DNA from: a virus
Taxonomy: Duplodnaviria; Caudoviricetes
Virus record (IMG/VR): IMGVR_UViG_3300012936_000015
Location: 1 to 58,420 of that record
Length of the DNA stretch: 58,420 bases
Reading direction: 5' to 3' (one strand)
Each line of letters starts with the position of its first letter. The first letter of the stretch is position 1. Position numbers and translations under genes: made by a program. Positions 5,215 to 55,504 of the stretch are shown one piece after another. The notes beneath the pieces are model-generated. The model saw only the letters and a list, made by a program, of their open reading frames with translations. It was not told the DNA's origin and ran no database searches.

Positions 5215-5220
5215 TAATAA

Positions 5221-5306
5221 CAAAGGGGGGATAGTAATGAGTAACATAATTATGTCGTCTCCGTTACTCACCCATGAAGGGACTTTGTGTACTTTTCCCC
5301 TTTTTG
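5221..5306 (+). ncRNA. Putative multi-stem structured RNA / attenuator
   Basis: Outer stem CAAAGGGGG...CCCCTTTTTG; inner stem TGAGTAAC/GTTACTCA; small CCC-ATGAA-GGG hairpin. Confidence 0.45.
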
Positions 5307-5323
5307 TTTTAACTTAAAAAACT

Positions 5324-5524: not shown

Positions 5525-5525
5525 A

Positions 5526-6254
5526 ATGTCAAACGAAATATTAGAACTGTTAAAAGATGATGAGCAGTATTACAGTGGGGTGGGTAAAGAATACTTATCT
5601 AATTCAGATATTGGAACACTATTAAAAAACCCAAGAGAATTTGGTGCTGATAGACCGGACAACATAAACTTTATGAAGGGTCGCTTGTTTCATCAATTAA
5701 TTTTAGAACCAAACAAGGTCAAGAATATAAATTGTATTGATGTTAGTTCTCGTAATACAAAAGCATACAAAGAATATAGTAACGGAAGTATTGTGTTATT
5801 ACAAAAAGAAGTAGACGAAATTATAAAGCTAACCAAAGTTATGTTGGGTAATGTAGATTTCTTTGATATGATAAGAGAAAAGAATAATCAATACGAAGTA
5901 CCTATGATAAAAGAAATAAAAGGGGTAATGTGGAAAGGTAAAGCAGATATTGTAAACGAGCATGTGCTTATAGATTTAAAAACTACAAGCGACATATCTA
6001 AATTTAAATGGTCGGCAAGAGATTATAATTATGATAGTCAAGCTTACATATACGAACAACTTTTTGGTAAACCTTTATTCTTTTTGGTGGTTGACAAACA
6101 AACTCAAGCTTTGGGAATGTTTGAACCAACTCCAGAGTTTTTAGAAAAAGGAGAAAGAAAAGTAGAACAAGCAATAAGTGTATACAATCAATTCTTCAGT
6201 AAAGACGCAGAAGAAGATATAGAAACTTATTACATTAACGAACAATTAAATTAA
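5526..6254 (+). CDS. PD-(D/E)XK exonuclease (RecE/ExoVIII-like, DUF3799-type)
   Basis: YLSNS, GRLFHQLILEP, KGKADIV, IDLKTT and YDSQAYIY motifs; adjacent to the SSAP. Confidence 0.85.
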   Translation: MSNEILELLKDDEQYYSGVGKEYLSNSDIGTLLKNPREFGADRPDNINFMKGRLFHQLILEPNKVKNINCIDVSSRNTKAYKEYSNGSIVLLQKEVDEIIKLTKVMLGNVDFFDMIREKNNQYEVPMIKEIKGVMWKGKADIVNEHVLIDLKTTSDISKFKWSARDYNYDSQAYIYEQLFGKPLFFLVVDKQTQALGMFEPTPEFLEKGERKVEQAISVYNQFFSKDAEEDIETYYINEQLN

Positions 6255-6276
6255 TTATTAACTAAATTTTATAAAC

Positions 6277-6540
6277 ATGTCAGAAAAAGAAAAAATTTTC
6301 GCAGATGGTTTCTCTTTTAAAACGAGAGAAAATCAACCCGACTTTGTAGTCGGTAGAATGTCAATCAAAGTAGAAGACGCTTTAGCGTTTTTGAAAGAAC
6401 GTTCAAGTAATGGTTGGGTAAACCTAAATATCAATAGAGCAAGAAGTGGTAATTATTATTGCGAACTTGATACATGGAAACCTACAAACAACACAACAAG
6501 TGCCCCCGTAGAGGAGGTTAAAGAAGATTTACCCTTCTAA
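6277..6540 (+). CDS. Small ssDNA-binding-like protein
   Basis: Beta-rich core with an SSB-type acidic tail EDLPF; recombination-module context. Confidence 0.65.
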   Translation: MSEKEKIFADGFSFKTRENQPDFVVGRMSIKVEDALAFLKERSSNGWVNLNINRARSGNYYCELDTWKPTNNTTSAPVEEVKEDLPF

Positions 6541-6556
6541 TTTTGATGTGTGAACT

Positions 6557-6617
6557 TGAGAAGGTCTGTCATATTCCTTCTCAGGGGGGAGGTATCCATA
6601 AGCCTCCCCCTTTTTTT
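6557..6617 (+). terminator. Tandem hairpins ending in a Rho-independent terminator
   Basis: TGAGAAGG/CCTTCTCA hairpin, then GGGGGAGG/CCTCCCCC plus T7. Confidence 0.85.
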
Positions 6618-41928: not shown

Positions 41929-44171
41929 TGTATTATTTCACTCCTTAATCCACGGTTATTATACCTTGCAAAGTTAATACTTATTTTTGATTGTTTTTTG
42001 TTTGATGCGTATAGATGCTTCTGATTTGCCATAATCGCCAAGCCTGAACTAATAGTAGCATCATAATCAGTTCGATTATTTATATCAAATTTAGCCCAAT
42101 CTTCTAATGTTCTTATAAAAGGCATACTGCCCATAATGTCACTTTCTCTATAGGTTTCTGTTAAATCTAAACCTACATATTTTTCTACATAAGACTCTAT
42201 AGCTGCGGCATGAGCTTGCTTTACATCTTCAGAACTATTAGGTATACCACCTAGTTCCTTTTCTGTTTTAGAAAGTTTTAACAATGGTTTATCAGGTCTG
42301 TTTATTGAAAACCCTCTATATCCTCTGTTTTTTAAATGATACAATAATCTTGGCTTATTGTTTTCTACTAAAATAGGCATACCGTAAAAAACACAAGCCA
42401 TTAAAACTTCTTCAAAAAATATTTCTGCTGTTTGAGGTCTTGCAATGTATTCTAAAAAAAACTCATTGCTAGGTATTTCATCCATATTAAATTTGGTCAA
42501 CCCATGTAATGCACCATTAGAACCTTTACCACCAACTGTTCCTGATATATCATAAGAGTCACAACCAAAAGAACCTAAGTGCTCGTTGCCTGGATACTTA
42601 ACACCCCTTCTTTCTACTACATTATTTTGCATTTGTTTTGGTAGCAACCAACTTATTAAAAACCTTCCTCTACTATTTGGAGTCCATATAACATTACTAT
42701 CCTTAATTCCATTTGCCCAACTAAAACTACCCCTAGTCAAATGGTGTTCTTTAATTAAAGAATCATTATAATCTATTTGTTGATATATTTTAGTTAAATT
42801 AAAAAGAGAAGACTTGCTTTCATCTCTAAATGCGTGAGACTCTGTTCTAGGAAACTGTCTATAAAACTCATTCAAAGCATCGGCATCTGATTTTAACGAA
42901 TCCACTTCTGCTTTCCAATAATCTATAGCTCCTTGATATATATACTCCCCATCTACACCCTCTACTTCTTTTTTAGGATTATAAAAAACAGGCATACCAT
43001 ATCTATCTATAAAACCCTCCATATTCCACTCCATGGGTATAAACAAAGAATACATTCCACTTTTTGTTTGACCATTTGCGTTTCTTGTATTTACATTAGA
43101 GTCTTCAAATAGTTTTTTAAAATTACCACCCCCTTTAGATAAAGCATTAGATGTAGAACCCATTAAACACTTCCCTATTATTTTACTACCTAATCTTAAA
43201 CATGTTTTAGTAACCCTCCAATTATTTAAAATGTTATTTGGCTTCACCCACTTACCACTTTCATCATGTACTAATAGCAATAATTTTTCCCCATCATAAG
43301 AGTTGTCGTCAGTATTCTTCCAATCTATTGTAGTGTCTAAGCCATACAGCTCTTCATTAGCCACATCATACATATTTTTTTTTGTAATCTTAGATGCAGG
43401 TATTCTAAAAGCTAATTCAGTTTTTGGTTTATCCATACCATCTTGAATAGGCTTGAAAAAAAATGGGAGTCTGCTAGAAATAGGAACTACTTTGTCAGTA
43501 AACATTTTTTTTGCATCAGAACCGGTTTTAGATAATATACCCACTCTTGAATCTTTTGCTAATGTTCCTACATTAATACATTCTGAAGAGCCCATATATG
43601 AAAAACCCGACCTTCTTATTTTTAAATAAGTCATGCCAAAGCATCTTTTGTCAGCTCTACAAGCCTCCCAAAACAAAAAGAAAATTCTATTTGCCTCTCT
43701 ATAATCAGGATAACCAACATCTATATTAGTCCATTGTAAATACATATAATGAGACCCTGTAATATAAGTGGGTTTGCCTTTATTCATAAACCAATAACCA
43801 TCCTCTCTTTTATCAAACTCATTCTCTATATAATCTACCCACCTACTTTTAAATTCTTTAGGAGCATCATTCCATTGAAATATAGAGTTTATCTTAGACA
43901 AAGATTTTGGCAATTCTTTTCTTTCCCAATATTGTTTAGTAGTATTATCATCTCTGCTATAACACTTCTTAGGAGCTTGAGGAAGTCCTATTATAAGTCC
44001 TGATATATTTATTATATCACCAACTCGACCCGTTTTAGAAATGTTTACAAAATCATATTTTTCATTATACCCATACCGCCAAGTTCCACCTCTATTTTTA
44101 TTGGACAAAACTCTTTTAGGTATGTAGTTATCTAAAACTTTATATAAACTATTTTGAACGTCTTTCTGCAA
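41925..44171 (-). CDS. terL: Terminase large subunit
   Basis: KIRRSGFS Walker A variant, LLVHDESGKW Walker B, GSTSN, nuclease-domain GCDSYD and ENN. Confidence 0.88.
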   Translation of the reverse strand: MQKDVQNSLYKVLDNYIPKRVLSNKNRGGTWRYGYNEKYDFVNISKTGRVGDIINISGLIIGLPQAPKKCYSRDDNTTKQYWERKELPKSLSKINSIFQWNDAPKEFKSRWVDYIENEFDKREDGYWFMNKGKPTYITGSHYMYLQWTNIDVGYPDYREANRIFFLFWEACRADKRCFGMTYLKIRRSGFSYMGSSECINVGTLAKDSRVGILSKTGSDAKKMFTDKVVPISSRLPFFFKPIQDGMDKPKTELAFRIPASKITKKNMYDVANEELYGLDTTIDWKNTDDNSYDGEKLLLLVHDESGKWVKPNNILNNWRVTKTCLRLGSKIIGKCLMGSTSNALSKGGGNFKKLFEDSNVNTRNANGQTKSGMYSLFIPMEWNMEGFIDRYGMPVFYNPKKEVEGVDGEYIYQGAIDYWKAEVDSLKSDADALNEFYRQFPRTESHAFRDESKSSLFNLTKIYQQIDYNDSLIKEHHLTRGSFSWANGIKDSNVIWTPNSRGRFLISWLLPKQMQNNVVERRGVKYPGNEHLGSFGCDSYDISGTVGGKGSNGALHGLTKFNMDEIPSNEFFLEYIARPQTAEIFFEEVLMACVFYGMPILVENNKPRLLYHLKNRGYRGFSINRPDKPLLKLSKTEKELGGIPNSSEDVKQAHAAAIESYVEKYVGLDLTETYRESDIMGSMPFIRTLEDWAKFDINNRTDYDATISSGLAIMANQKHLYASNKKQSKISINFARYNNRGLRSEIIQ

Positions 44172-44427
44172 AACCTTGTTTAGTATCTATTTTTTTAACA
44201 TTATCTAAATCTTTTAAACTTTCTTCTTCTCCATCTATTCTGTTTAATATTTCAAAAGCATCAAAGATTGCTAGCTTTTTAGTTGCTGCTGCATTTTTTA
44301 ATCTATCTGCCGCCAACTCGTCCTCTGGGTCAGGTTTAATAATTTCTTCTTTAGCCACTTTAATTAACTGCCTAACCGCTTTTCTACCCGCTTCTATAAT
44401 TTGTAATTTTAATTCTTTTGAATTCAT
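44149..44427 (-). CDS. Putative terminase small subunit
   Basis: Helical 92-aa ORF overlapping the terL start; ends in GFAERRSK. Confidence 0.5.
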   Translation of the reverse strand: MNSKELKLQIIEAGRKAVRQLIKVAKEEIIKPDPEDELAADRLKNAAATKKLAIFDAFEILNRIDGEEESLKDLDNVKKIDTKQGFAERRSK

Positions 44428-44428
44428 C

Positions 44429-44899
44429 TTAAGATAGTTTTAAAAACATTACTTGAACTAACCTTGAATCATTTCCTTCGCCAAAATTATCATATATATT
44501 TCTGGAGTGCTTATGGTAAGAATCAAAAGCCACTAACCTATTATACTTCATGTTTACAGTACAACTTTTCGAATTGTCTTCATTATAAAATGTTGTACCT
44601 GCTCCTTCAGGATATGTTTTATTTAAATATAACAAAATGGTTTTGTCGCCCATCATTTCATCTGAATGAATGTAATTTGGTTCTTTTTGTTTAAAAGGAG
44701 ATTGTCTTACAAAATTATACTTTACATGATAATCGTTAAATAACATCAAAACTAATTTTTGCAACTCATCGTTTTCTCTTAGCTGAATTCCTTTAAATAT
44801 ATTTTTACCATCTTCAACATCTACAAAATTATTTGATAATATATCTGAAACGTACTTATCAGGGTTTTTTATTATATCATCAAAAATAATTAGATTCAT
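44429..44899 (-). CDS. 2-oxoglutarate/Fe(II)-dependent oxygenase
   Basis: HSD...H facial triad; LLYLN, GTTFY, YNRLVAFD; distal Arg in RLVQVMF. Confidence 0.8.
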   Translation of the reverse strand: MNLIIFDDIIKNPDKYVSDILSNNFVDVEDGKNIFKGIQLRENDELQKLVLMLFNDYHVKYNFVRQSPFKQKEPNYIHSDEMMGDKTILLYLNKTYPEGAGTTFYNEDNSKSCTVNMKYNRLVAFDSYHKHSRNIYDNFGEGNDSRLVQVMFLKLS

Positions 44900-45459
44900 A
44901 ATTTTATAGTTATTTGGTGGTCGTATATTCTGTACACCTTTTCATCATCTAACATAAACTCATACTCTACATTAGGAACAAACGAAACTATGTCACCATT
45001 GTTTACACCCTTGCTTTTTAAATAATCATTAGCATATAACATTTCCCCCATCAAAGGCTCGTTAGAAGTATTTTTAAAAATTATACTTTCTTTTTTTTGA
45101 ATAGGCTTGACAAAGCAGTATCTATCATAAGTATTCCATCCACTTTTATTTTTAAATAAAAAAAACTGCTCATTATCTACTAAAAAATAATCATCTTTTA
45201 AAAAGCTTTTACCACTTTTTTGTTTACCACCTATGTCATAATAATATTTAAAAACATTATGATGAACTAACAAAACATCCCCTTTCTTAATATCTCCATT
45301 GTAATTTATTGGAGTTTCTATTACTTCAGCTTCTCTATTTGAAAAACTTGCATCCTCTTGAGATGTGCTAATTATAATGTCTTTACCTCCTATATTTTTA
45401 GTGTTATTGTATCTTTTTTTATTTACAGGAGATACTATAAACTGTGTGGGGGACCTCAT
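44896..45459 (-). CDS. Tandem GroES-like (two Cpn10-fold repeats) protein
   Basis: Two repeats of the GroES pattern: FIVSP...IKKGDVLL and CFVKP...VNNGDIVSF...YRI. Confidence 0.6.
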   Translation of the reverse strand: MRSPTQFIVSPVNKKRYNNTKNIGGKDIIISTSQEDASFSNREAEVIETPINYNGDIKKGDVLLVHHNVFKYYYDIGGKQKSGKSFLKDDYFLVDNEQFFLFKNKSGWNTYDRYCFVKPIQKKESIIFKNTSNEPLMGEMLYANDYLKSKGVNNGDIVSFVPNVEYEFMLDDEKVYRIYDHQITIKL

Positions 45460-45683
45460 TATATATTTATATTATATTCTAAAGACACAGGAACAGTGCT
45501 ACTAAACTCTTTCCATTTTAAAATAACATCACCTTCTCTAATATAAATTTTTACAGACTGAGAGTCTTCATCAAATTTAATAAGTTCTATGGTGTGATTT
45601 CCGCCCAAAACAGTTTGGCCTACGATATAGTGCATAGCTCCCGACTTGTAGTCAGGACCTACAGATATTTTTCTAATTTCCAT
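45459..45683 (-). CDS. Hypothetical protein
   Basis: IRKISVGPDYKSGAMHYIVGQ; overlaps the next start. Confidence 0.75.
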   Translation of the reverse strand: MEIRKISVGPDYKSGAMHYIVGQTVLGGNHTIELIKFDEDSQSVKIYIREGDVILKWKEFSSTVPVSLEYNINI

Positions 45684-45693
45684 TTTATTTTAT

Positions 45694-45960
45694 TTAAACA
45701 ACAATTTTAACGCTGTAGTTTCCTCCACCGTCATTAGTTTTGTATAATTGCCCTGTGCTCAGTCCTGCCGCTATAGCTGCAGCATTATTAGCCGCAGTAG
45801 GTAAATTAATTACTGCTCCCGTAGTAGCTCCACCTAACAATCCTAATAGTTGTTGTGCAGTAAAGTTTTTAGTAGCGTTGCTACTATTAACATCTGTACC
45901 AATTAATTTGTCTGTTAACTCCGGATTTGTTACGTCTGTATATGTACTAATTTTAGGCAT
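45694..45960 (-). CDS. Small protein resembling tail-fibre N- and C-terminal motifs
   Basis: MPKISTY...DKLIGTD...TKNFT start; NNAAAIAAGLSTGQLYKT end. Confidence 0.6.
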   Translation of the reverse strand: MPKISTYTDVTNPELTDKLIGTDVNSSNATKNFTAQQLLGLLGGATTGAVINLPTAANNAAAIAAGLSTGQLYKTNDGGGNYSVKIVV

Positions 45961-46283
45961 TATTTATTTTTTTTTAATTGTTCTTCTCTTTTTACTTTAA
46001 CCTCCTCTGGAGTTATTTCTTTCATATATTCAGATTTTTGTTTAGTAGAAACCTTTCCTGTCTCTAAGCTAATTTTAGCATCTTTTCCATATTTAGTAAC
46101 CATTACTCTTTCTTTCTCTACTAATTTGGTTTTTATTATACCAAGTACTTTTTTAACGTTTTCTTGTTCTAATATATTATCAGCTAATTTAAGTTTAGCT
46201 GAATTTAAATCTTGAATAACTTTTTTAATATCATCTAACTCTTCCTTAGTTAAATAATCATCTATTAATTCTTCTTTTGACAT
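45960..46283 (-). CDS. Hypothetical coiled-coil protein
   Basis: 107 aa; KYG...ISLETG motif. Confidence 0.7.
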   Translation of the reverse strand: MSKEELIDDYLTKEELDDIKKVIQDLNSAKLKLADNILEQENVKKVLGIIKTKLVEKERVMVTKYGKDAKISLETGKVSTKQKSEYMKEITPEEVKVKREEQLKKNK

Positions 46284-46315
46284 TTTGATTAAATTTTAAA
46301 TTATATACAAATATA

Positions 46316-46609
46316 CTAATATTTTCCTTGTCTGTTTTTTGGAGAAGATTTTGTTGAACCTCCTTTACCGGCCCACAATACTTTGCACGCCCAATACTGA
46401 GCACTTAGCTTACTTTTCTTTTCACCACACTTGTGTCTAGCTCTAAAACTTTTACGTGCTGCAGTAGAGTAATTATGCCCATAACCTTTAGCACCAAAAT
46501 GAATAAGCTTTTCTTTACCACCCTCACAAGCTTTTACCATTCTTTTTTTACCTAGCCTAGTACTTCTCATCACCTTATTACAAGGCATATCTTTTTTACT
46601 TCTTCTCAT
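46316..46609 (-). CDS. Small basic protein of a marine-virus DUF type
   Basis: KK.MV...KLIHFG...ARKSFRARHKC...YWAC..LW pattern. Confidence 0.75.
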   Translation of the reverse strand: MRRSKKDMPCNKVMRSTRLGKKRMVKACEGGKEKLIHFGAKGYGHNYSTAARKSFRARHKCGEKKSKLSAQYWACKVLWAGKGGSTKSSPKNRQGKY

Positions 46610-47001
46610 TGTTTTTTAACCTTTTCAAGTGACCTTCCTCCAAAATAACTCGCTACAATTGTAATTAACACAAGCTGTAAAAGGTCAACCCATTTTCCTT
46701 CAACTTTGAAATCAATAAAGCCTGCATCAATAAATATTAGTAACATAGTACATACAATAACAAAAACTAAAACAAGTGGTCGTACATTTTTACTTAACCA
46801 CGAATCACTTGCCATGTCTACTTTCCATCTATCCGTTATATTTGCTTCTATTTTTGCTTGATGGTTTAAAACTAATTCTTTTAATTTTCTTTTAGCTTCT
46901 TTTTTTTCTGCATCTGTAGTAACTAAATTGTCTACAATCGCTCCCGCAGAATCAAGTAGCTTACTTGCACCATCTCCTAATATTTTATTTAAAACTTTCA
47001 T
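46606..47001 (-). CDS. Holin (3TM 'gene-transfer release' type)
   Basis: RWKVDMASDSWLSKNVRP, hydrophobic helices and YFGGRSLEK; next to the endolysin. Confidence 0.8.
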   Translation of the reverse strand: MKVLNKILGDGASKLLDSAGAIVDNLVTTDAEKKEAKRKLKELVLNHQAKIEANITDRWKVDMASDSWLSKNVRPLVLVFVIVCTMLLIFIDAGFIDFKVEGKWVDLLQLVLITIVASYFGGRSLEKVKKQ

Positions 47002-47606
47002 ACTAATAAATCTTTACTATCTAATAATGTATATGTAAAACTATTACCCCACTTATCGCGTGCTACTCTGCATATATCCATAAACTCATGCCAATCATCA
47101 TTAGCAGCTATTACTTGACAACCTGCTGACCATTTATCTACTTGGGTAGATTTTTTTCCTCCCCACTTTGTTGCTCTATGAATATTAATTCCAAACAATC
47201 CCGTTTGTGTATTGTCATTACTTAAATCAAACTTACCGTCTTTATTAGCATCACGATATACTGTGACCGGTCTACATTGCCCTAACGCTTCGTATCTACC
47301 TTGGTGTAATCTTATTTTATGAGAACCGCGAAACTGACCTTCCTTCAATACGGCCACCCCTTCCTTTCTCATTATATTCTGCTCCCAATATCTTCCGGGG
47401 TCAGTAGTGCAATCATAACAATAAAACTCCCAATGACCATCACACATAAAAGATAAAGTTATTTTATCATCAAACTTATTAGTAACTTCTGTTCCTGTTT
47501 CAGAGTTTCTTACTCCAACTATGTTGAGATTATAGTCTCCGTTTTCAAACCATGCAAAACCTTTACTCTTTACTGTTTTCTCTATTATGTCTTTTGATAA
47601 ATTCAT
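46998..47606 (-). CDS. Putative endolysin with a YkuD/L,D-transpeptidase-like catalytic motif
   Basis: GINIH-x16-SAGCQV; NIVGVR and TTDPG motifs; adjacent to the holin. Confidence 0.7.
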   Translation of the reverse strand: MNLSKDIIEKTVKSKGFAWFENGDYNLNIVGVRNSETGTEVTNKFDDKITLSFMCDGHWEFYCYDCTTDPGRYWEQNIMRKEGVAVLKEGQFRGSHKIRLHQGRYEALGQCRPVTVYRDANKDGKFDLSNDNTQTGLFGINIHRATKWGGKKSTQVDKWSAGCQVIAANDDWHEFMDICRVARDKWGNSFTYTLLDSKDLLV

Positions 47607-47608
47607 AA

Positions 47609-47968
47609 TTACATAAATTTCTTTAATACTAATTCTTCTACTTTTTTTTGAGCCTCCTTAATACATAATTGAAATGTTAAATCAGCTTCATGTTTCTCGA
47701 CTACTTCTTTATTATAAAATATAATAACTGTAGGAACAGAAAGTATTTTGTATTTTTTTACAAGATTAGGAGAGTCTTCTACATTAACCATATAAGTTTT
47801 TACATCCTTAAACTTAGATAAGTCAACCATATTATCTTTATTCCATTCTGCATAAAACTCTACAACAACAATATCTTCTTTTAAAGCATCACTAAAATCA
47901 TCTTCTTTAATTGACATCTGACCAAAAGAAAATGCCGTTGTTAATAATAATAAAAATAAAAACTTCAT
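47609..47968 (-). CDS. Exported thioredoxin-fold protein lacking CxxC
   Basis: Signal peptide MKFLFLLLLTTAFSFG; VVVEFYAEWN in place of WCxxC; cis-Pro motif SVPTVIIF. Confidence 0.75.
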   Translation of the reverse strand: MKFLFLLLLTTAFSFGQMSIKEDDFSDALKEDIVVVEFYAEWNKDNMVDLSKFKDVKTYMVNVEDSPNLVKKYKILSVPTVIIFYNKEVVEKHEADLTFQLCIKEAQKKVEELVLKKFM

Positions 47969-48252
47969 TTTTGTATTACTTCGTACAAACGTTCATCCAT
48001 TACATCTAATTTTTTTTCTATAGCATCTAAACTTTCTTTATTAGATAAAACAGTTTGTCTTATTAATTCATTTTTCATGTTTATTTCATTAGCACTTGGG
48101 TAATCATCAAACTTTTCTACTTTAACTTCTATAGCGTTAACTTGACCAACTAAATTATAATAAGTTCCAACTAAACCTACAACCATTACAACAAAGCTTA
48201 TTAAAAACTTCAAGTCGGTACTTACTTTTGTGTTCTCGCTTATTTTAGCCAT
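47965..48252 (-). CDS. Single-TM membrane protein with a periplasmic coiled coil
   Basis: TM segment FLISFVVMVVGLVGTYY followed by heptad repeats. Confidence 0.7.
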   Translation of the reverse strand: MAKISENTKVSTDLKFLISFVVMVVGLVGTYYNLVGQVNAIEVKVEKFDDYPSANEINMKNELIRQTVLSNKESLDAIEKKLDVMDERLYEVIQK

Positions 48253-48815
48253 TTTACTTTTCCGTTTTGAATATAAATACTTTCAGGCTTTCTAATTGAC
48301 TGCCCATTTAAATTAAACATAATATTACTACCTTTTGAATCTTCAATTATTTCTATAATATTAGTGTTACATGGTAGCCCTGTATCACAATCAATAAACT
48401 CTTCTATATATATCCACTCTGTTTCTGTTATATACAAAGTGTCTAATATATCTTCATAAACATATACTGTATCTATTTCAGTAATAGTATTAGTTATAAA
48501 TACAGTATCAGTTAAATTAATATATTCTATTACATCTACATATACCGTATCACATTCTATTATCTCTATAGCACAATCAACAATAGATGTTGGGCCTTCT
48601 GTGTTTTCATCTGAAGCATCTACACAATCTTCCCATCCATCATTTATCCAAGAAGCTTGAACGCAACCATTAGGGCTATACTCTGTCCAATTATTTTCAT
48701 CATCACCACAATAAAAGCCACCTGCTTGTGAACACACCAAACAATTATTATTGTATTCTTGTGAAAACAAGAACCCGCTAAACAAAGTAAATAGTAGTAA
48801 TATGTATTTTTTCAT
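48240..48815 (-). CDS. Secreted protein with an LDL-receptor class A-like module, DTV repeats and a T9SS-CTD-like tail
   Basis: Signal peptide; C..FYC...GCVQASWINDGWEDCVDASDE; FNLNGQ...IYIQNGKVKWLK C-terminus. Confidence 0.65.
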   Translation of the reverse strand: MKKYILLLFTLFSGFLFSQEYNNNCLVCSQAGGFYCGDDENNWTEYSPNGCVQASWINDGWEDCVDASDENTEGPTSIVDCAIEIIECDTVYVDVIEYINLTDTVFITNTITEIDTVYVYEDILDTLYITETEWIYIEEFIDCDTGLPCNTNIIEIIEDSKGSNIMFNLNGQSIRKPESIYIQNGKVKWLK

Positions 48816-48817
48816 AC

Positions 48818-49834
48818 TTAAAAGAATAAATAGTTAAACCCAAATTTTAATTCATATACAGGTTTCATCCAATACCTCTGGTGTGTTCCTTCTACAAAGA
48901 TTCCTAAGTTCTTTGTTATACGTGAACCAAACACAACTCCTGCATCCCATTCCGCCCAATCACTGTTCTCGACTCCATACTCAAATGAGTAATCATCAAG
49001 CCCATAATGCAAAGGTAGTAAATTATACCATATATGAATCCATAGTTTTGGAGTCCATTTATAGTATGAAACGCCTAAAACAGCGCTAATTTCGTTTTGA
49101 TTGCCTAATTTTTCTAGTTCTTTCTCGTTAAAAGACGCAACTGCGTTGCCAAAATAATGTTTGTAAAACTCATCATTTGATGTTGCAATAAGCTCTTCAC
49201 CACTAAACCAATGCCAATCTCCTCCTACAAATTGCCTACTGTAACCAAAGTCTGCAGCCAACTCAACAAAAGTAGTTTCACCTGGAGTCCAAAAGTCTTC
49301 TATAGGATTAACTCCGTATACAGGGTGGTTACGAAAACATACACCTGCAGTAAAATCCCATGACCCCTTCGTAATTCTAAACCGACTATCCAAAGATGTG
49401 TATTCTAAATTTACTCTTTGATTGTCGGTGTATTGTATTTTAGAAACTGTTTTATCTCCGAGATAACGTAACCAAAAATTAGCATTATTAAATGTTTCAC
49501 CACGATGGCGTATAAAAGAATAATTAAGGAGATACTCCCAACCATTAGCGTTCCCAACAGTAACGTTGTCTGAAACAGTTCTTTCAGTACCGTAGTACCA
49601 CGTTTTAACTTTATATTCATAATCAAATCTAGCAATTTTTCTAATACCTATAGTTAAATTGTAGTCATAGGGGTTAATTTTTGTTACATCTTCATACCCT
49701 CTATCAATAGCTATATAGTTTTCTCTTTCCACCATAGACGTTCCCATAGTAAAAGAAGTATATAGTGTAGAGTATTTAAAAAATTGTCCAAAAGAAAGTA
49801 ATGGAAATAATAGTAATAGCAATAATATTTTCAT
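48818..49834 (-). CDS. Putative outer-membrane beta-barrel protein
   Basis: Signal peptide; alternating aromatic/hydrophobic beta-strands; C-terminal YELKFGFNYLFF beta-signal-like end. Confidence 0.65.
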   Translation of the reverse strand: MKILLLLLLFPLLSFGQFFKYSTLYTSFTMGTSMVERENYIAIDRGYEDVTKINPYDYNLTIGIRKIARFDYEYKVKTWYYGTERTVSDNVTVGNANGWEYLLNYSFIRHRGETFNNANFWLRYLGDKTVSKIQYTDNQRVNLEYTSLDSRFRITKGSWDFTAGVCFRNHPVYGVNPIEDFWTPGETTFVELAADFGYSRQFVGGDWHWFSGEELIATSNDEFYKHYFGNAVASFNEKELEKLGNQNEISAVLGVSYYKWTPKLWIHIWYNLLPLHYGLDDYSFEYGVENSDWAEWDAGVVFGSRITKNLGIFVEGTHQRYWMKPVYELKFGFNYLFF

Positions 49835-49959
49835 CGTCCTTGACCTCTATAAAGTTTTACATAATTAGTAGCTCCCTTTGTAGGTGAAGACTTGCTTTTG
49901 CTGTGTCTTTTGTGCTTGGTCTTTTTGTTGGGTTGAAACCGAAATACGTTTTTTGCCAT
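49831..49959 (-). CDS. Small basic peptide ending YRGQGR (42 aa)
   Basis: Hand-translated MAKNVFRF...KLYRGQGR*; ATGA overlap with the barrel gene. Confidence 0.75.
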   Translation of the reverse strand: MAKNVFRFQPNKKTKHKRHSKSKSSPTKGATNYVKLYRGQGR

Positions 49960-50018
49960 CTTTTATAAAGTATTTTATTTTATAATTACCCCCCAATGTT
50001 ACTCCTGTTGTCCACATA

Positions 50019-50594
50019 TTAATTAAATATAGCGTGAATTGTGCCTGTAAATACAGGAGTTCTCCTTAAAAACATAGCCTGAAGTGGTATTAGTTGTGAC
50101 ACAGAACCTGTCGGCAGTGCTGTATCAGCTGTTAGGGTTATACTATCAAATAACTCAGTCATTATATTAAAATTTGCAGAAGCAGCAGAATTAGTTTTAC
50201 ACGTTACATATAAATTACAAGGTCTGGTATTTCTTTTAAATATCATTACACTACCTCCTACAAAACCAACACGGTCACTTAACTTAAGCGTGGTTTGATT
50301 TACTACCTCCACAATGGTGCTATAAGAACTATATCTTGGATTATAAAATGTATCACCAATTTCAAAAACTCCATTTCTTAACTCAGTTTCAAATTCTGGT
50401 GAAGCGCCTGGAGGGCCTACTGTAACCTCTGTATTAGGAACAGCTCCCCCAACTACCGTTATATTACCATAAGCCTTTATCAAGTTTGCAGGATTAGGTA
50501 TGGGAGTGCTTGATGAGCCTTCACTACCACTAGCTGAATGAGCACTATCAAGTATTTTTATTATTCTTGTTCCGTATGAATTTGTTATTGCCAT
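50019..50594 (-). CDS. Hypothetical (possible structural) protein
   Basis: 191-aa beta-rich ORF. Confidence 0.75.
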   Translation of the reverse strand: MAITNSYGTRIIKILDSAHSASGSEGSSSTPIPNPANLIKAYGNITVVGGAVPNTEVTVGPPGASPEFETELRNGVFEIGDTFYNPRYSSYSTIVEVVNQTTLKLSDRVGFVGGSVMIFKRNTRPCNLYVTCKTNSAASANFNIMTELFDSITLTADTALPTGSVSQLIPLQAMFLRRTPVFTGTIHAIFN

Positions 50595-50608
50595 GTCTAT
50601 ATTTTTAT

Positions 50609-50827
50609 TTATTTATCATAAGGAAAAATTCTGTTTAAGGTGTCTCTTCGTTTACCACACCCGCAATCTTTTCCTGTTGCTTTTGCTACCGCATCTACAG
50701 CTTTTTTTATTCCTGTAGCTTTGGTAAATTTCTCTATTGTATCCCCCAACCCTCGACTCCTTTGGTTAGAAGGTACATAATCATTTGCTTTAGGAGCTAA
50801 GCCTAATAAATGTCTTCTTGTGGGCAT
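50609..50827 (-). CDS. Small phage protein (GLGDT...DCGC motif)
   Basis: SRGLGDTIEKFTKATGIK...DCGCGKRRDTLN; ATG at 50827. Confidence 0.78.
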   Translation of the reverse strand: MPTRRHLLGLAPKANDYVPSNQRSRGLGDTIEKFTKATGIKKAVDAVAKATGKDCGCGKRRDTLNRIFPYDK

Positions 50828-50829
50828 AC

Positions 50830-50997
50830 TTAACAATTACAATTTTTATTAAAACCTATGTTAAATATAATAAATTTAGCACATCCTCTTGACATGTCTC
50901 CTTTGATTTCTAACAAAGTCAACCCTCCTATTCTGCACTCTATTGCTATTTTATCCCACTGTCTTGCGTTACTTGAAAAATAATTTACAAATTTCAT
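50830..50997 (-). CDS. Small hypothetical protein (55 aa)
   Basis: Hand-translated MKFVNYF...NKNCNC*; fills the gap between neighbours with 2-3 nt spacing. Confidence 0.65.
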   Translation of the reverse strand: MKFVNYFSSNARQWDKIAIECRIGGLTLLEIKGDMSRGCAKFIIFNIGFNKNCNC

Positions 50998-51000
50998 ATT

Positions 51001-51468
51001 TTATTTTTTTAATTTTTTTCTTTTTAACCCTACTCTTTGTGTTTTAGGAACACCTTTGTAGCTTTTCTTTTTAACTCTTCTACCCTTTAAAGTATCAACA
51101 GTCTTACTCGTCTCCATGTGTTTTCTGTTGTATTTTAAAACTTTTTTGCTCTTTGCTGTTGGCCCTTTTATCTTTTGTTTTACAACTCTTCTTTCTGTTA
51201 ACGTTCCCTCTTTAGGTCTATCTACCTGAACCTGTTTCATCCCCCCTTGTGTTTTTACAACTTTTCTTTTTCTGCCCGTTATAGGATTTTTATATCTTCT
51301 AGTGGTAACTGTTCTTCCAAATACATCTTTTGATTTGGTTTGTTTATATACAGGCTTAACTGCTTTTTTAACTGCGGCAGCAGTTTTTTTAGCAGCAGTC
51401 TTTATGCCTTTTCGCGCTTTACGCAAAGCATTACCTACTTTAGTGCCCCCTGGTTTTTTCTTAGCCAT
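51001..51468 (-). CDS. Lys/Arg-rich basic protein
   Basis: 155 aa; histone-H1-like KTAAKKTAAAVKKAVK. Confidence 0.75.
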   Translation of the reverse strand: MAKKKPGGTKVGNALRKARKGIKTAAKKTAAAVKKAVKPVYKQTKSKDVFGRTVTTRRYKNPITGRKRKVVKTQGGMKQVQVDRPKEGTLTERRVVKQKIKGPTAKSKKVLKYNRKHMETSKTVDTLKGRRVKKKSYKGVPKTQRVGLKRKKLKK

Positions 51469-51476
51469 TTTTATTA

Positions 51477-51677
51477 TTATTTATTTTTACAACCAAAATT
51501 TTTAGCGTAATTAGCCATCTTAACTACACTTTCTGTATACTTTTTAGTATTCTTCATTACAGCATCGGCAGCGGAACAGGCATCTTTGAACCCGTTCCTT
51601 TTTGCCCATGATGTGAATTTCCCTTCATTTTTTTCTTTTATGGCGGGAAATTTCTTAGTTCTGCCCTTCATCGCCAT
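51477..51677 (-). CDS. Small basic protein
   Basis: IKEKNEGKFT.WAK...KMANYAKN pattern. Confidence 0.75.
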   Translation of the reverse strand: MAMKGRTKKFPAIKEKNEGKFTSWAKRNGFKDACSAADAVMKNTKKYTESVVKMANYAKNFGCKNK

Positions 51678-51931
51678 TACGACTTGCGCATTACTCCTGT
51701 TCTATTACTACCAACTTTAGTTTTAAAAGCATATTCTAATTTGCTTTTTACACTTTTTGGATAGTGCTTGTCTTCCATCATTGAATGGTTGCCCATATAA
51801 GCGTGACCATATTTTGACTTAGACATTCCTTTAGACTCGTCTCTTCTAGACTTCATAGATTGCTTGTGAGAACCTTTATGTTTCATTCCCAAAGACTCAT
51901 CTAATCTTGCGTTATAACCTTGATGTTTCAT
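51677..51931 (-). CDS. Small basic protein
   Basis: QGYNARLDESLG...SRRDESKGM. Confidence 0.75.
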   Translation of the reverse strand: MKHQGYNARLDESLGMKHKGSHKQSMKSRRDESKGMSKSKYGHAYMGNHSMMEDKHYPKSVKSKLEYAFKTKVGSNRTGVMRKS

Positions 51932-51949
51932 TTTTTAACAATTTATTAA

Positions 51950-52114
51950 TTAGTACGTACTTTTCATTTCACTTCCATAACCTGGATTCATTTTTAATGA
52001 ACCGTTATTTAATTTAGCAAACTCATTGGCTTGAGCTTTCCCAACTGTGTTGTATGGAAATTTTTTTACTTTCATTTTGCCCGTATCCGGACAACTGTAT
52101 TTTACTGTTGGCAT
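51950..52114 (-). CDS. Small basic protein (54 aa)
   Basis: Hand-translated MPTVKYSCPDTGKMKVKKFPYNTVGK...STY*; TATCTTTG element upstream. Confidence 0.7.
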   Translation of the reverse strand: MPTVKYSCPDTGKMKVKKFPYNTVGKAQANEFAKLNNGSLKMNPGYGSEMKSTY

Positions 52115-52147
52115 ATTATATATTTTTATTTTACAAAGATAACAAAA

Positions 52148-52567
52148 TTATGCTTTCTTCTTTTTATCTTTTTTATTTAAACTCTTACTTGTAGCGCTAA
52201 TAGTTCTAATAGCTTCTCCAAACTTACCCTGTTTAATATTTTTTACAGTGTCTTTTGCTCCTTTATAAACTTTATAGGCATTAGTATCTTTAGCCTTATT
52301 AACCTTATCTACTACTTTTTTAACAACCTTACCTACTTTAGTATTTTTTGCTTTTTCTACTTTTGCTTTTACTTTGTCAGCAGCCTGTTCTATTCCTGTT
52401 TTACCGGTAGTTTTCTTTATAAACTTCCTAGTTGTTTTTCTATTTTCTTTAGCCTTTTTTTTATCATCTTTAGACATTAAGACTTTACCTTTCTTAGCTT
52501 TTTTAATAGCTCTTTTTTCAAATCTTTCTTCTCTTTTAGCGCGTAATTTATCTCCGAATCTACTCAT
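52148..52567 (-). CDS. Lys-rich basic protein
   Basis: 139 aa; starts MSRFG like the upstream gene. Confidence 0.75.
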   Translation of the reverse strand: MSRFGDKLRAKREERFEKRAIKKAKKGKVLMSKDDKKKAKENRKTTRKFIKKTTGKTGIEQAADKVKAKVEKAKNTKVGKVVKKVVDKVNKAKDTNAYKVYKGAKDTVKNIKQGKFGEAIRTISATSKSLNKKDKKKKA

Positions 52568-52571
52568 AGTT

Positions 52572-52793
52572 TTATATTTTTCTACCTGTATAGGTTTTCT
52601 TTTTACCTTTTTCTTTTAATTTATCTTTAGTTGCTTTGACTATTTTTTTTCCTAACTTATAACCTGCTTTAGCCATTGTATATGCTGACTTTAAAGGGTT
52701 AGGTGCTGTGCCTGTATACATAGCTCTAGACGTATCAAGCTTTTCAGTAGCATACTTTTTTTTCTCTTTTTGTTTATTACCAAATCTACTCAT
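52572..52793 (-). CDS. Lys-rich basic protein
   Basis: 73 aa; starts MSRFG. Confidence 0.7.
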   Translation of the reverse strand: MSRFGNKQKEKKKYATEKLDTSRAMYTGTAPNPLKSAYTMAKAGYKLGKKIVKATKDKLKEKGKKKTYTGRKI

Positions 52794-52794
52794 G

Positions 52795-53052
52795 TTACAT
52801 TTTTTGTTTGGTTCGCTTACCTCTAAAATAATTTACTTCTTTTCTCTTTTTTCCTTTTTTATCAAACTTCTCAACTTTTCTTAAATTATTAACTGCGTTA
52901 TTTCTTTTTACTTTAGTAACTACTTTTTTAACACTTCCATCTTTTCTTTTTTTCACTTTTATTTTCGCAGATTCTCCATCCATCTTAGCTTCATATTTTA
53001 AAGTTTTATTGTTTTTTCTTTTTTTATCTCTTAGTTTTTTTAATATAGCCAT
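52795..53052 (-). CDS. Lys-rich basic protein
   Basis: 85 aa, extremely Lys/Arg-rich. Confidence 0.7.
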   Translation of the reverse strand: MAILKKLRDKKRKNNKTLKYEAKMDGESAKIKVKKRKDGSVKKVVTKVKRNNAVNNLRKVEKFDKKGKKRKEVNYFRGKRTKQKM

Positions 53053-53671: not shown

Positions 53672-53894
53672 TAGCTACCACCTCATTGTTTAGTAACATG
53701 GTGTGTCCTGAGTTCTGGTCATAGTATATCTCGTCACCTTCCTTTATAATCTCAACATCTGTACCTACGTTTAACACTTTACCTTTTCTATATCTTAACT
53801 TAGACGTTTCTTCTCCTGAAAGTAAAAGGCCTGACTGCGTAGTTACTTCTTCATCTATTGGTTTTATTATAATATATGTTCCTATTGCTTGCAT
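53637..53894 (-). CDS. groES: Co-chaperonin GroES
   Basis: IIKP, mobile loop TTQSGLLL, GKVLNVG and IKEGDEIYY. Confidence 0.92.
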   Translation of the reverse strand: MQAIGTYIIIKPIDEEVTTQSGLLLSGEETSKLRYRKGKVLNVGTDVEIIKEGDEIYYDQNSGHTMLLNNEVVAIIRQMNVVVVL

Positions 53895-55504
53895 GTTGTA
53901 TCGTATGAACGTGCCATTGTAATAATAGCGTTAGTACTAAGTATGGTGTTTGCTACCGATATTGCGTTACTTAATGCACTTACAGTAACTTTAGTAGGGT
54001 CTATAACTCCTAAATCTATCATTTTACCCTTTTTTTCTGTTACTACATTATATCCTTCGCCTTTTCCAAGTTTAGATGATAGGTAAATATCTTCTATATT
54101 TAACCCTGCATTTTCAAGTATTTGTTTTAATGGAGACAATAAAGAGTCTAATAAAATTGCGTAAGCAATTTTTTCGGCATCAGATTTTCCACTTTTTAGT
54201 TCTGAAGAAATATTCATCAAGGCTACTCCACTACCTGGCAATATCCCGTCAGATAAAGCAGAACGAACCGCACAAACTGCATCATCTACCCTGTCATACA
54301 GTTCTTTTTGCTCTAAATCAGTATTACCTCCTACATGTATAACCCCTACACCTCCGGTCAATGAGGCTATACGTGATAGTATAAACTCTCTATCAGCTTT
54401 GGTCTTAGCTCTTTTGTGAGCATCTTTTAACTCAGACACTCTGCCCTCTAACTTTTCTTGATGCTCCTCATCTTTTGGTGAACAAAGGACGACAGTGGAG
54501 TCTCTCCCAACTATCACCTTGGACGCTCTCCCTAAATCGGAGAAGTTTACAATACTCAAGTCGTCCCCTGTTTTCTCAGAAAAATAAGTTGCACCTACTG
54601 ACATGGCTATGTCTTGCATTAACTCATGAGTTTTCCAACCAAATGAGGGTGGTGGTATAACACACACCTTCAATCCTCTTTTCATAACGTTAGCCGCTAA
54701 CGTATTAACAACATTAGCTGAACATGGAGCTATAATAAGTAGTTTTTTACCTTCTTGAATAATTGGTTTTAATATTCCTTCTATATTTAATACATTACTT
54801 ATCTCTGCATCAGACACAAGTATGTTAACATTTTCTAATATACACTCGTCTTTCTTTTGATTATTAACAAAAAGAGTGCTTGAATAACCCCTATCTATCT
54901 TTATTCCTTCAGTGGTTTCAGAATAAGTTTCTGAATTAGAAGACTTTTCCACTGTCACTATCCCGTTTTCTCCTACCACATTGTAAGTTTCAGATATTAT
55001 ATTTCCAACAAACTCATCATTGTTAGCAGAAATAGTAGCCACATGGTTAATAGTATTCTTGTCCACTTTGACACTATCTCTTTTTAACATCTCAATTATT
55101 TGAATAGTATATGAAGATAGTGCTCTAATAACTTCAGTAACACTAACATCAGGGTTCTTACCTAATAGTCTTGTAGTATTCTTAACTATAGACTCAGTTA
55201 AAACAATAGCCGTGGTTGTTCCGTCTCCGGCTAAAGTAGCTGTTCTTTCAGCAGCTTGTTTCATTATTCTAACTGCTAAGTTTTCAACAGGGTCAAGAAG
55301 CTCAACTGCTTTTGCAACTGTCACTCCGTCTTTGGTAACAGTAATGCTTGCCGTATGGTCTGGTGATTCTATAAGCACAGTATTGCCTCGCGGCCCTAAC
55401 GTGCTCTTTACTGCATTTGCAATTTTAGTAATTCCTTTGATTAATTTATCTCGACCTTCCGAACCGAAGTCAAGCTCCTTGGGGATGTATCCTGTATTAT
55501 TCAT
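53882..55504 (-). CDS. groEL: Chaperonin GroEL
   Basis: STLGPRG, TKDGVTVAK, AGDGTTTA, GVIDPTKV; no GGM tail. Confidence 0.97.
   Translation of the reverse strand: MNNTGYIPKELDFGSEGRDKLIKGITKIANAVKSTLGPRGNTVLIESPDHTASITVTKDGVTVAKAVELLDPVENLAVRIMKQAAERTATLAGDGTTTAIVLTESIVKNTTRLLGKNPDVSVTEVIRALSSYTIQIIEMLKRDSVKVDKNTINHVATISANNDEFVGNIISETYNVVGENGIVTVEKSSNSETYSETTEGIKIDRGYSSTLFVNNQKKDECILENVNILVSDAEISNVLNIEGILKPIIQEGKKLLIIAPCSANVVNTLAANVMKRGLKVCVIPPPSFGWKTHELMQDIAMSVGATYFSEKTGDDLSIVNFSDLGRASKVIVGRDSTVVLCSPKDEEHQEKLEGRVSELKDAHKRAKTKADREFILSRIASLTGGVGVIHVGGNTDLEQKELYDRVDDAVCAVRSALSDGILPGSGVALMNISSELKSGKSDAEKIAYAILLDSLLSPLKQILENAGLNIEDIYLSSKLGKGEGYNVVTEKKGKMIDLGVIDPTKVTVSALSNAISVANTILSTNAIITMARSYDTTCKQ

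Follow-up and report, generated by a model that had tools for sequence, protein, structure and literature searches.

An IMG/VR virus genome (IMGVR_UViG_3300012936_000015; 58,420 bp, estimated to be 96% complete), which was analysed over its whole length and is referred to here as the window, carries a conserved triad of genes coding for a predicted outer-membrane β-barrel, a small protein with one transmembrane (TM) segment and a thioredoxin-fold protein (Trx) in which asparagines take the place of both active-site cysteines. We tentatively interpret the triad as a lysis-linked trans-envelope complex that may stand in for the spanin and would do so without a lipoprotein, a reading that ranks first among those considered and that we hold with somewhat less than even confidence. 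An earlier note on this DNA, made from its letters, had proposed a trans-envelope machine on the basis of five tightly packed genes. What has stood is a conserved, phage-restricted, envelope-targeted and lysis-tied gene set in a window that has no canonical spanin, whereas the composition of the unit and a supposed type IX secretion system (T9SS) signal had to be corrected.

In the window, the triad belongs to a run of seven co-directional open reading frames (ORFs) on the minus strand (46606-49959; Table 1), which are packed by overlaps of 4-13 nucleotides (nt) or gaps of 2 nt. In the order of transcription, they code for a basic 42-amino-acid (aa) product, the 338-aa barrel protein, a 191-aa protein resembling the LDL-receptor class A (LDLa) module, the 95-aa TM protein, the 119-aa Trx, a 202-aa endolysin and a 131-aa holin. 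The first five genes, already described as tightly packed and continuing into endolysin and holin, were confirmed as such: from one gene to the next, they overlap by 4 nt, are 2 nt apart, overlap by 13 nt and again overlap by 4 nt. A further 2-nt gap leads from the Trx gene to the endolysin gene and another 4-nt overlap from there to the holin gene. The holin additionally matches Pfam GTA_holin_3TM (E = 1.2e-4), slightly under the cut-off of this model. The genes of the cassette are real and their arrangement is far from chance.

Table 1. Genes of the cassette in the window, listed in the order of transcription
Product	Position	Strand	Basis or remark
42-aa ORF, very basic, isoelectric point (pI) 11.65	49831..49959	-	4-nt overlap with barrel gene start
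338-aa exported protein, predicted outer-membrane β-barrel	48818..49834	-	AlphaFold2 model and structural matches
191-aa acidic secreted LDLa-like protein	48240..48815	-	composition, weak LDLa match
95-aa TM protein	47965..48252	-	hydropathy, synteny
119-aa exported thioredoxin-fold protein (Trx), NxxN	47609..47968	-	Pfam PF00085
202-aa endolysin	46998..47606	-	phrog_3000 (2.1e-34); phrog_33083 'endolysin' (8.5e-13)
131-aa holin	46606..47001	-	phrog_3427 holin (1.6e-25)

Relatives of this locus were collected from IMG/VR in three sets. The barrel protein of the window served as query for set 1 (100 relatives, 80 kept), and two distant barrel members, taken from a profile search of 1.84 billion representatives that gave 297 matches at E ≤ 1e-3, served for sets 2 and 3 (221 and 110 relatives, respectively, 80 of each kept). 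Together with three contigs from metagenome-assembled genomes (MAGs), this yielded 243 loci, in which family profiles were run on all ORFs of at least 40 aa; the barrel was matched in 240, the TM protein in 209, Trx in 206 and the LDLa-like protein in 81 of them. Gene order was scored at loci with room, that is, with at least 1.5 kb past the barrel gene. Among the 70 such loci of set 1, 63 have the order barrel, LDLa, TM, Trx and seven have the barrel followed by the LDLa gene only; the LDLa gene directly follows the barrel gene in 70/70. Set 2 has the order barrel, TM, Trx at every locus with room (75/75), and in 54 of these the TM gene starts no more than 60 nt from the barrel end. Set 3 (72 loci with room) is more diverse: the order barrel, TM, Trx occurs in 38 loci, TM and Trx precede the barrel in 15 and in two more that also carry LDLa, and the barrel stands alone in 11. 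The one MAG contig with room has the order barrel, TM, Trx as well. TM and Trx genes are adjacent in 63, 75, 49 and 1 loci of set 1, set 2, set 3 and the MAG contigs, respectively. A reverse search with a Trx of set 3 returned 80 loci, several of them on contigs already present in set 3; in the 78 with room, a TM gene is always adjacent (78/78), and 70 of them have a barrel gene no farther than 6 kb away.

Taken together, the gene-order counts in the 243 loci and the Trx-centred search establish that the conserved core is the triad of barrel, TM protein and Trx, within which TM and Trx genes constitute an obligate adjacent pair. The LDLa-like protein is an accessory that is essentially specific to the subfamily of the window. 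Hence, the neighbourhood does recur among relatives, as the earlier note would require, but its five-gene cassette does not hold as the unit: barrel, TM and Trx genes co-occur, the LDLa gene is confined to one subfamily, and the 42-aa gene, found by tblastn in just 10 of the 80 related loci of set 1, is not a member of the conserved module.

The barrel family comprises 1534 clusters at 90% identity. Among the 120 clusters listed, none has a Pfam domain, the sole functional name is 'hypothetical protein' and the longest contigs measure about 94 kb or less. The triad itself is found on hundreds of IMG/VR contigs of uncultured marine viruses, which range from 30 to 245 kb, and the module therefore crosses very different phage types; DNA nearly identical to that of the window is present in marine metagenomes from 14 studies. 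In the genomes of 185,579 prokaryotic species, the barrel was detected on three MAG contigs only. Thus, the barrel family is phage-restricted. Searches of 50,697 phage records with the barrel and LDLa-like proteins (tblastn) returned no match. Neither the barrel nor the LDLa profile matched in any of five records, of cultured or near relatives, picked by terminase similarity (0/5 each; MW202828.1, an Elemovirus, Cellulophaga phi13:2 and phi38:1, and Tenacibaculum Gundel_1), the barrel profile giving 1.1e-130 with its positive control and the LDLa profile having been run without one. Two of the three MAG contigs with barrel homologues, PBPJ01000041.1 and PBPJ01000028.1, are binned to a 'Candidatus Woesearchaeota' MAG. 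The former also has a TM gene and the start of a Trx match, with leaders in the style of Bacteroidota, and the latter has the barrel only; most likely, both are phage contigs that binning wrongly assigned to an archaeal MAG.

For the 338-aa protein, the prediction is an outer-membrane β-barrel of the 12-strand class; a barrel with a terminal phenylalanine had been surmised before. Its AlphaFold2 (AF2) model, computed from a 30-sequence alignment (predicted local distance difference test, pLDDT, 72.4; predicted template modelling score, pTM, 0.68), has about twelve long strands. In an exhaustive structural comparison (VIA-align), the top 17 rows were all outer-membrane barrels (Z 14.3-10.0), including the EstA autotransporter domain (14.3), KdgM (13.5), NanC (13.4), NalP (13.0), Tsx (12.3), LpxR (12.3), FapF (11.2) and OMPLA (11.0); with the best of these neighbours (Z 14.3-11.2), 162-211 residues could be aligned at a root-mean-square deviation of 3.8-5.3 and a sequence identity of 6-12%. 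With Foldseek, 101 matches were obtained at E ≤ 0.001, FapF, EspP and NanC being at the top. The protein opens with the leader MKILLLLLLFPLLSFG, which is followed by Gln, and ends in NYLFF. The predicted strands alternate between hydrophobic and polar faces, and the invariant residues map mostly to the polar, presumably lumen-facing side (R65, E100, R123, R151, R168, W265, H267, W269 and N271 among the polar and aromatic ones); a stretch RKIARFDYEYK is invariant as well. The near-invariant Ser250 and His267 sit on neighbouring predicted strands; no catalytic motif was identified in the barrel and no active-site arrangement is apparent in the DSSP string.

By sequence, the barrel stands apart: nothing was found at E ≤ 1 in Pfam or NCBIfam with the window protein and 24 diverse relatives, nor at E ≤ 10 with the family profile among Protein Data Bank (PDB) sequences. 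In the ESM Atlas, neighbours of the barrel and of Trx are viral clusters only, whose names, barrel or thioredoxin, are generic. Within the set, the barrel evolves most slowly; its identity to the window protein is 62-97% across the 80 loci of set 1, with a median of 68%, as compared to 45%, 39% and 37.5% for the other three proteins. Distant homologues (P0005-P0041, columns about 320-345 of alignment A2) carry a long-loop insertion with DxNxDGxxD-like motifs, e.g. P0006, P0007 and P0016. This insertion, which is missing in the window barrel, resembles Ca2+-binding loops and echoes the Ca2+ theme of the LDLa-like partner.

The 95-aa TM protein has one hydrophobic segment, at N-terminal residues 10-28, and no other according to hydropathy, which bears out the single-TM assignment made before. 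Its C-terminal part looks helical and contains a conserved EFxMKDxxIR motif in the alignment. The protein matches phrog_20984, a family of unknown function (E = 1.6e-5); its profile has no significant sequence match in the PDB, the matches to coiled coils lying at E ≥ 0.29. The 119-aa protein, noted previously as a thioredoxin fold without CxxC, matches Pfam Thioredoxin PF00085 above the cut-off (E = 1.8e-7; 31.6 bits, cut-off 23.5) and TIGR01068 under the cut-off of that model (3.8e-9), and its profile retrieves 203 thioredoxin and protein disulfide isomerase (PDI) sequences of the PDB at E ≤ 1e-3, with asparagines aligned to both cysteines. Where thioredoxin has WCGPC, the active-site stretch here reads WNKDN, and the mature protein contains one Cys. 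N43, N46, P79 and T80 are invariant in 13/13 sequences drawn from the three sets of loci and one MAG locus. The cis-Pro (PT) loop is thus kept. All 57 distinct Trx sequences of set 1 are devoid of CxxC and have Asn at both positions. Judged by its sequence, Trx is redox-dead and probably acts as a binding or adaptor domain.

Three of the products (338, 191 and 119 aa) open with hydrophobic leaders, which by inspection of the sequence end in SFG, LFS and SFG, respectively, ahead of a predicted +1 Gln. This Gln is invariant or near-invariant in relatives, which lends weight to the Bacteroidota-style signal peptides claimed earlier. Gln at +1 after cleavage is the Q-rule of Bacteroidetes (PMC5837995), which has already been noted for phage proteins of Porphyromonas (PMC10367356); the conserved +1 Gln of all three leaders therefore fits this rule.

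The position of the triad next to lysis genes was assessed in 175 loci that have all three triad genes and at least 1.5 kb past the downstream end of the triad. In 93 of them, an endolysin gene is found no more than 1.5 kb away from the triad (M15 type in 34, the 202-aa type in 44, PG_binding_1 plus Amidase_2 in 15), and in 101 an endolysin or a holin gene; these counts are lower bounds, three endolysin families having been queried, and they are not probabilities, as the loci are related. The closest relatives of the window (L001-L012) retain the four envelope genes but have both lysis genes exchanged: an M15 peptidase (phrog_894, 4.6e-34) occupies the position of the endolysin, and the holin is another one. 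The 202-aa endolysin was found by tblastn in 7 of the 80 loci of set 1. Typically, set 2 has the triad, a small protein with two TM segments, an endolysin either of the 202-aa type or with PG_binding_1 (1.1e-13) and Amidase_2 (7.8e-8), and lastly a holin matching Phage_holin_4_1. L056 and L057 have their endolysin gene immediately upstream of the barrel gene. Thus, the endolysin slot is swappable, and shared descent alone can hardly account for one neighbourhood that comes with three non-homologous endolysins.

Further genes recur in or near the module. A conserved protein of 70-87 aa, with two hydrophobic segments by eye and no family match, is encoded before TM or after Trx in many relatives (e.g. 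L060 7565-7798, L099 6941-7195). In sets 1, 2 and 3, respectively, 31, 36 and 18 loci have its gene no farther than 1.5 kb from the triad; it is not present in the window. A staphylococcal-nuclease-like endonuclease without signal peptide (phrog_452, 3.8e-37) is repeatedly found in or beside the module, for instance at L013 7784-8158 and L024 5292-5648. In set 2 and parts of set 3, an exported protein of 141-142 aa ending in GFGLKF or GFGLRF is encoded a few genes past the triad (L101 9534-9959, L114 5925-6353 and similar). It has no Pfam match and looks like an 8-strand outer-membrane barrel; a membrane protein of 370-407 aa recurs in the same place.

No canonical spanin was detected in the window. 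Two lipobox scans, covering ORFs of at least 25 aa on both strands, gave no candidate in 40000-53000 and, in the rest of the window, antisense fragments inside larger genes only, none of them a plausible lipoprotein gene. This agrees with the failure of the earlier note to recognise a lipoprotein o-spanin. Besides the TM protein, no other N-terminally anchored protein was found in the window; the unimolecular layout of an N-terminal lipobox plus C-terminal TM domain is absent among the lipobox scans and the ORFs with hydrophobic segments, and no window protein matches a spanin family of Pfam or PHROG. To our knowledge, many flavobacterial phage genomes carry no annotated spanin. About 15% of phages of Gram-negative hosts are reported to lack a recognisable one (10.1101/515445), and for Bacteroidetes phages, only unimolecular spanins appear as catalogued in the available part of a 2025 survey (PMC12596118).

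Small lipoprotein genes do occur in some relatives. Pro-rich lipoproteins of 53-63 aa are encoded between barrel and LDLa genes in a few loci of set 1 (L024 2432-2623, L054 7044-7205 and similar), and at L197 3283-3471 and in five similar loci of sets 2 and 3, Trx is followed by a 62-aa ORF whose start resembles a lipobox and whose C-terminus is hydrophobic. Both kinds are candidate minimal o- or u-spanins by their layout; neither has a PHROG or Pfam match. The nearest named relative of the window, MW202828.1, has no triad and encodes, in the region 5061-6606 of its locus (L085) and between its holin (phrog_199) and M15 endolysin, a protein of 207 aa that has a hydrophobic anchor at the N-terminus, repeats of the DT[IV] type and a β-strand-like C-terminus. 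Going by these features, it may be another unconventional outer-membrane lysis factor. Homology of this protein with the LDLa-like family was considered and is not claimed (hhalign probability 5%).

The LDLa-like protein of the window is very acidic (mature pI about 4.05) and contains nine Cys. Its Cys-rich N-domain bears an LDLa-like Ca-cage motif and is followed by a repeat stalk, variable and rich in DT[IV], and then by a C-terminal domain that is short; its AF2 model reaches a pLDDT of 57.8, below 50 in the stalk, with one helix and a few short strands in the tail. The N-domain resembles the Ca2+-cage half of the LDL-receptor class A module, for which a six-Cys module with the cage CxxxxWxCDGxxDCxDxSDE was taken as the criterion: the acidic cluster DGWEDCVDASDE is present, and the fourth Cys position is taken by a near-invariant Asn. 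Pfam Ldl_recept_a (PF00057) matches profile positions 13-35 of 37 at E = 0.0069 and 17 bits, below the threshold of 24.1; similarly weak matches were obtained for 23 of 30 relatives (best 7.3e-4), and the family profile matches 47 PDB sequences at E ≤ 10, mostly LDLa-type modules (best E 0.0049). Thus, the Ca-binding motif that had been proposed is a resemblance consistent across relatives, yet one that stays below threshold. Foldseek comparison of the model with the PDB returned nothing at E ≤ 0.001; LDLa modules and two T9SS cargo entries of P. gingivalis appeared at E 2.8-8.6 only and were not used.

The T9SS-like C-terminal domain (CTD) that had also been attributed to this protein was not confirmed. 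The Por_Secre_tail model (PF18962) matched 0/30 family members at E ≤ 1 and nothing in the window at E ≤ 10, and a profile built from 14 phage CTDs matched no LDLa-like protein at E ≤ 10. The T9SS CTD is an Ig-like domain of seven strands (PMC11285876), and the 42 residues that are left beyond the last Cys look too short for such a fold. A tail common to LDLa-like proteins and the large Cys-rich proteins encoded after Trx in set 3 was likewise tried and rejected, as a regular expression and a tail profile matched only the LDLa family plus one ORF each.

A link to the T9SS does exist in set 3, where the barrel gene often has directly upstream of it a gene whose product, 900-1400 aa long, carries both a signal peptide and a genuine T9SS sorting domain. 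Por_Secre_tail matched in 6/6 scanned proteins of this kind (35.7-47.6 bits, cut-off 27). The phage CTD profile detects an ORF with such a domain in 25 loci of set 3 and in MAG contig L082 that runs up to the barrel start; in 14 further loci, the ORF ends upstream of the barrel at a distance of up to about 1.3 kb. Examples, from loci L171-L250, are L175 2002-5001, L176 1280-4999 and L248 1216-5004; one large CTD protein of set 3 contains an AMPK1_CBM-like carbohydrate-binding domain and a 245-aa example from set 2 a cohesin domain. T9SS cargo encoded by phages has been reported once ('Cryophage', PMC7468147).

Outer-membrane disruption, cargo display and phage exclusion are the roles that we infer as possible for the module. 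In the explanation we favour, the barrel would be exported by Sec and inserted into the host outer membrane, presumably by the β-barrel assembly machinery (BAM), the TM protein would have its anchor in the inner membrane and its C-terminus on the periplasmic side, and the NxxN Trx would serve as a soluble periplasmic adaptor. The triad could thus link both membranes through the peptidoglycan in the manner of a spanin complex, with barrel and Trx replacing the usual outer-membrane lipoprotein, and, after removal of the wall by holin and endolysin, it might destabilise or fuse the outer membrane. In the subfamily of the window, the acidic LDLa-like protein would be an added partner, which might bind Ca2+ and either dock on the barrel or pass through it. 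In this model, the contacts, the topology of the TM protein, the dependence on BAM and the effect on the outer membrane are proposals, built on gene structures, predicted folds, export signals read from the sequences, synteny, lysis linkage and phage restriction. The architecture of the TM protein would be i-spanin-like. Lysis is ranked first because the triad and its position beside changing lysis genes are invariant and the cargo neighbours are specific to subfamilies; moreover, the near-confinement of the barrel to phages, with three MAG contigs, argues against a function expressed in lysogens.

Several observations weigh against this explanation. The barrel occurs without TM-Trx in seven loci of set 1 and 11 of set 3 that have room, and since five terminase relatives have neither barrel nor LDLa-like protein, the module is dispensable for such phages. 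In 74 of the 175 loci scored for linkage, no lysis gene was found within 1.5 kb. While the window has no canonical spanin, small lipoprotein genes lie inside or beside the module in 17 of 202 loci, and, to judge from its lipobox-like start, the 62-aa ORF after Trx could be a true spanin in the six loci that have it. The T9SS cargo genes that adjoin the barrel gene in set 3 speak for secretion and not for lysis. With about 55 residues only, the part of the TM protein in the periplasm is too short to span this compartment alone. Nor does an integral barrel make an obvious fusogen; the o-spanins that are known are lipid-anchored. Finally, the conservation of the barrel (68% as compared to 37-45%) and its invariant lumen-lining residues look more like the interior of a channel or an enzyme than like a passive anchor.

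The reading ranked second, which we regard as unlikely, takes the barrel for a phage-owned outer-membrane shuttle, anchor or channel for secreted phage proteins in the manner of PorP/SprF, with TM protein and Trx as periplasmic helpers and a late remodelling of the surface as outcome; the surface would be decorated, e.g. with polysaccharide-binding or Ca2+-binding proteins, and the membrane not broken. A cargo-like gene indeed touches the barrel gene in two subfamilies (LDLa in 70/70 of set 1, CTD proteins in set 3), and the variable length of the LDLa-like protein in relatives (148-310 aa) as compared to that of the TM protein (91-114 aa) fits an exposed surface protein over a bridge of fixed length. 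The best structural matches of the barrel include polypeptide-secretion barrels, namely the autotransporters EstA, NalP and EspP as well as FapF. There are precedents, too: PorP forms complexes with the periplasmic PorE and cargo (PorE-PorP-PG1035), and SprF is paired with SprB (PMC9143113); flavobacterial type B CTD substrates are genetically linked to PorP/SprF shuttle or anchor barrels (PMC12618676), and the phage T9SS cargo reported before belongs here as well (PMC7468147). However, no sequence link to PorP_SprF (PF11751) was found at E ≤ 1 in 24 diverse barrel members or at E ≤ 10 in a six-frame search of the window, and the tail of the LDLa-like protein is not a recognisable CTD. The CTDs of set 3 do match Por_Secre_tail, a model that we take to describe the type A signal. 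Type A CTDs are recognised by PorV and not by PorP-like barrels (PMC12618676). Moreover, in set 2 the TM gene closely follows the barrel (54/75), no cargo gene intervenes, and endolysin and holin follow; a shuttle would also leave the invariant TM-Trx pair without a role.

Superinfection exclusion or receptor masking, by which barrel and partners would alter or block host receptors and thereby keep other phages out or spare progeny from being lost on debris, appears improbable. All products are envelope-targeted, and phage outer-membrane proteins or lipoproteins with exclusion or masking roles are known, such as Lom and Bor of lambda and Llp of T5. However, the family is essentially absent from bacterial genomes and hence from prophages, where exclusion genes are usual, no PADLOC family matched any of six proteins at E ≤ 0.1, and the genes sit in a late, lysis-proximal block. 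The extreme conservation of the lumen is also unlike the surfaces usually shaped by receptor mimicry and arms races. Least probable of the readings weighed here is that the barrel is an auxiliary substrate channel, for nucleosides or acidic sugars as in Tsx or KdgM/NanC, or an outer-membrane enzyme such as an LpxR- or OMPLA-like hydrolase of lipid A or phospholipids, for which TM protein and Trx act as assembly chaperones. These very proteins are among its structural neighbours (Z values above), invariant polar and aromatic residues face the predicted lumen, and the module of set 2 adjoins ribonucleotide reductase genes; yet there is no catalytic motif, similarity among 12-strand barrels is generic, and the lysis linkage would go unexplained unless the enzyme attacked the outer membrane, which would merge this reading with a lysis function. 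A wider version of the favoured model, doubtful to a similar degree as the shuttle, sees in the module a fourth machinery that breaches the outer membrane, used by phages of marine Bacteroidota and composed of a BAM-inserted barrel, an NxxN Trx adaptor and an inner-membrane anchor. Its barrel would double as a port for cargo (LDLa-like Ca2+ binders, T9SS-tagged giants), such that lysis and late surface remodelling are coordinated.

As to the surroundings of the cassette, a 748-aa ORF at 41925-44171 encodes a large-terminase homologue. It shares 77% identity with the protein annotated as large terminase in an uncultured podovirus, and 45%, 37-38% and 31% with hits from podophages of Flavobacterium, Cellulophaga and Tenacibaculum, respectively. 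Because of this resemblance, the host of the phage is almost certainly a flavobacterium. Scans of the window for sigma-70-like promoters (37, 39.3 expected), terminators (4, 3.1 expected) and the Bacteroidota -7 motif TANNTTTG (102 occurrences, 92 expected) gave counts not above chance, and therefore no operon boundary is claimed. Further away, the phage encodes a full-length GroEL (53882-55504, minus strand; NCBIfam PRK12849, 2e-137). Just upstream of the cassette lies a 191-aa ORF (50019-50594, minus strand) for which tblastn found a match in none of the 80 related loci, not even in L001, whose barrel is 97% identical, indicating a hypervariable slot; by eye, its C-terminus resembles that of a 156-aa ORF at the equivalent position in MW202828.1.

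The route that Bacteroidota phages take through the outer membrane is poorly known, and the module described here is abundant, phage-restricted and unannotated. If it provides the missing outer-membrane step, it would represent a new class of lysis proteins and the first case of a phage depending on a self-encoded integral barrel, and hence on the host BAM, for its release. If it is a cargo shuttle instead, phages would bring along T9SS substrates plus their own outer-membrane partner, and the surface of infected flavobacteria would be changed during algal blooms. In either case, the NxxN thioredoxin and the barrel are clean, testable targets.

In the literature searched on phage lysis, outer-membrane proteins and T9SS, no description of a phage module of barrel, TM protein and thioredoxin was found, and to this extent the module can be called undescribed, as the earlier note had it. 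Several known systems bear comparison. PorP/SprF proteins are likewise Bacteroidota outer-membrane barrels of about 300-350 aa encoded beside a gene for a secreted protein, and in P. gingivalis PorE joins the complex (PMC9143113, PMC12618676). The linkage of the barrel to a putative secreted-substrate gene, which is a trait of PorP/SprF, is seen in the window, in set 1 and in set 3. In contrast to PorP/SprF, the phage barrel does not match PF11751, is phage-restricted, is partnered by TM protein and Trx instead of PorE, and has a cargo either without recognisable CTD (window) or with a Por_Secre_tail CTD (set 3). The 'Cryophage' case resembles the relatives of set 3 in that Bacteroidota phages encode T9SS sorting domains; it differs in that the available part of the report mentions cargo genes only and no barrel, TM protein or Trx (PMC7468147), and the cargo of the window has no detectable CTD. 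Autotransporter β-domains, FapF and KdgM/NanC/Tsx are the best structural neighbours of the barrel model, but the phage barrel has no attached passenger, and a common fold class shows no common function.

Known solutions to the outer-membrane step of lysis are two-component spanins and unimolecular spanins (PMC6139136) and the cationic peptide of phiKT (10.1101/515445). The latter, the disruptin gp28, is a spanin alternative in a spanin-less podophage; the 42-aa ORF of the window is likewise small and highly cationic, a likeness of size and charge in an ORF that only 10/80 related loci share. Two-component spanins such as Rz/Rz1 of lambda resemble the module in organisation: they lie in or beside the holin-endolysin cassette, have an inner-membrane partner with an N-terminal anchor and a helical periplasmic part as well as adjacent or overlapping genes, and carry out the outer-membrane step of lysis (PMC6139136), which is also the job proposed for the triad. 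They differ in their second partner, which is a lipoprotein there and, in the module described here, a putative integral barrel of the 12-strand class together with a soluble thioredoxin fold.

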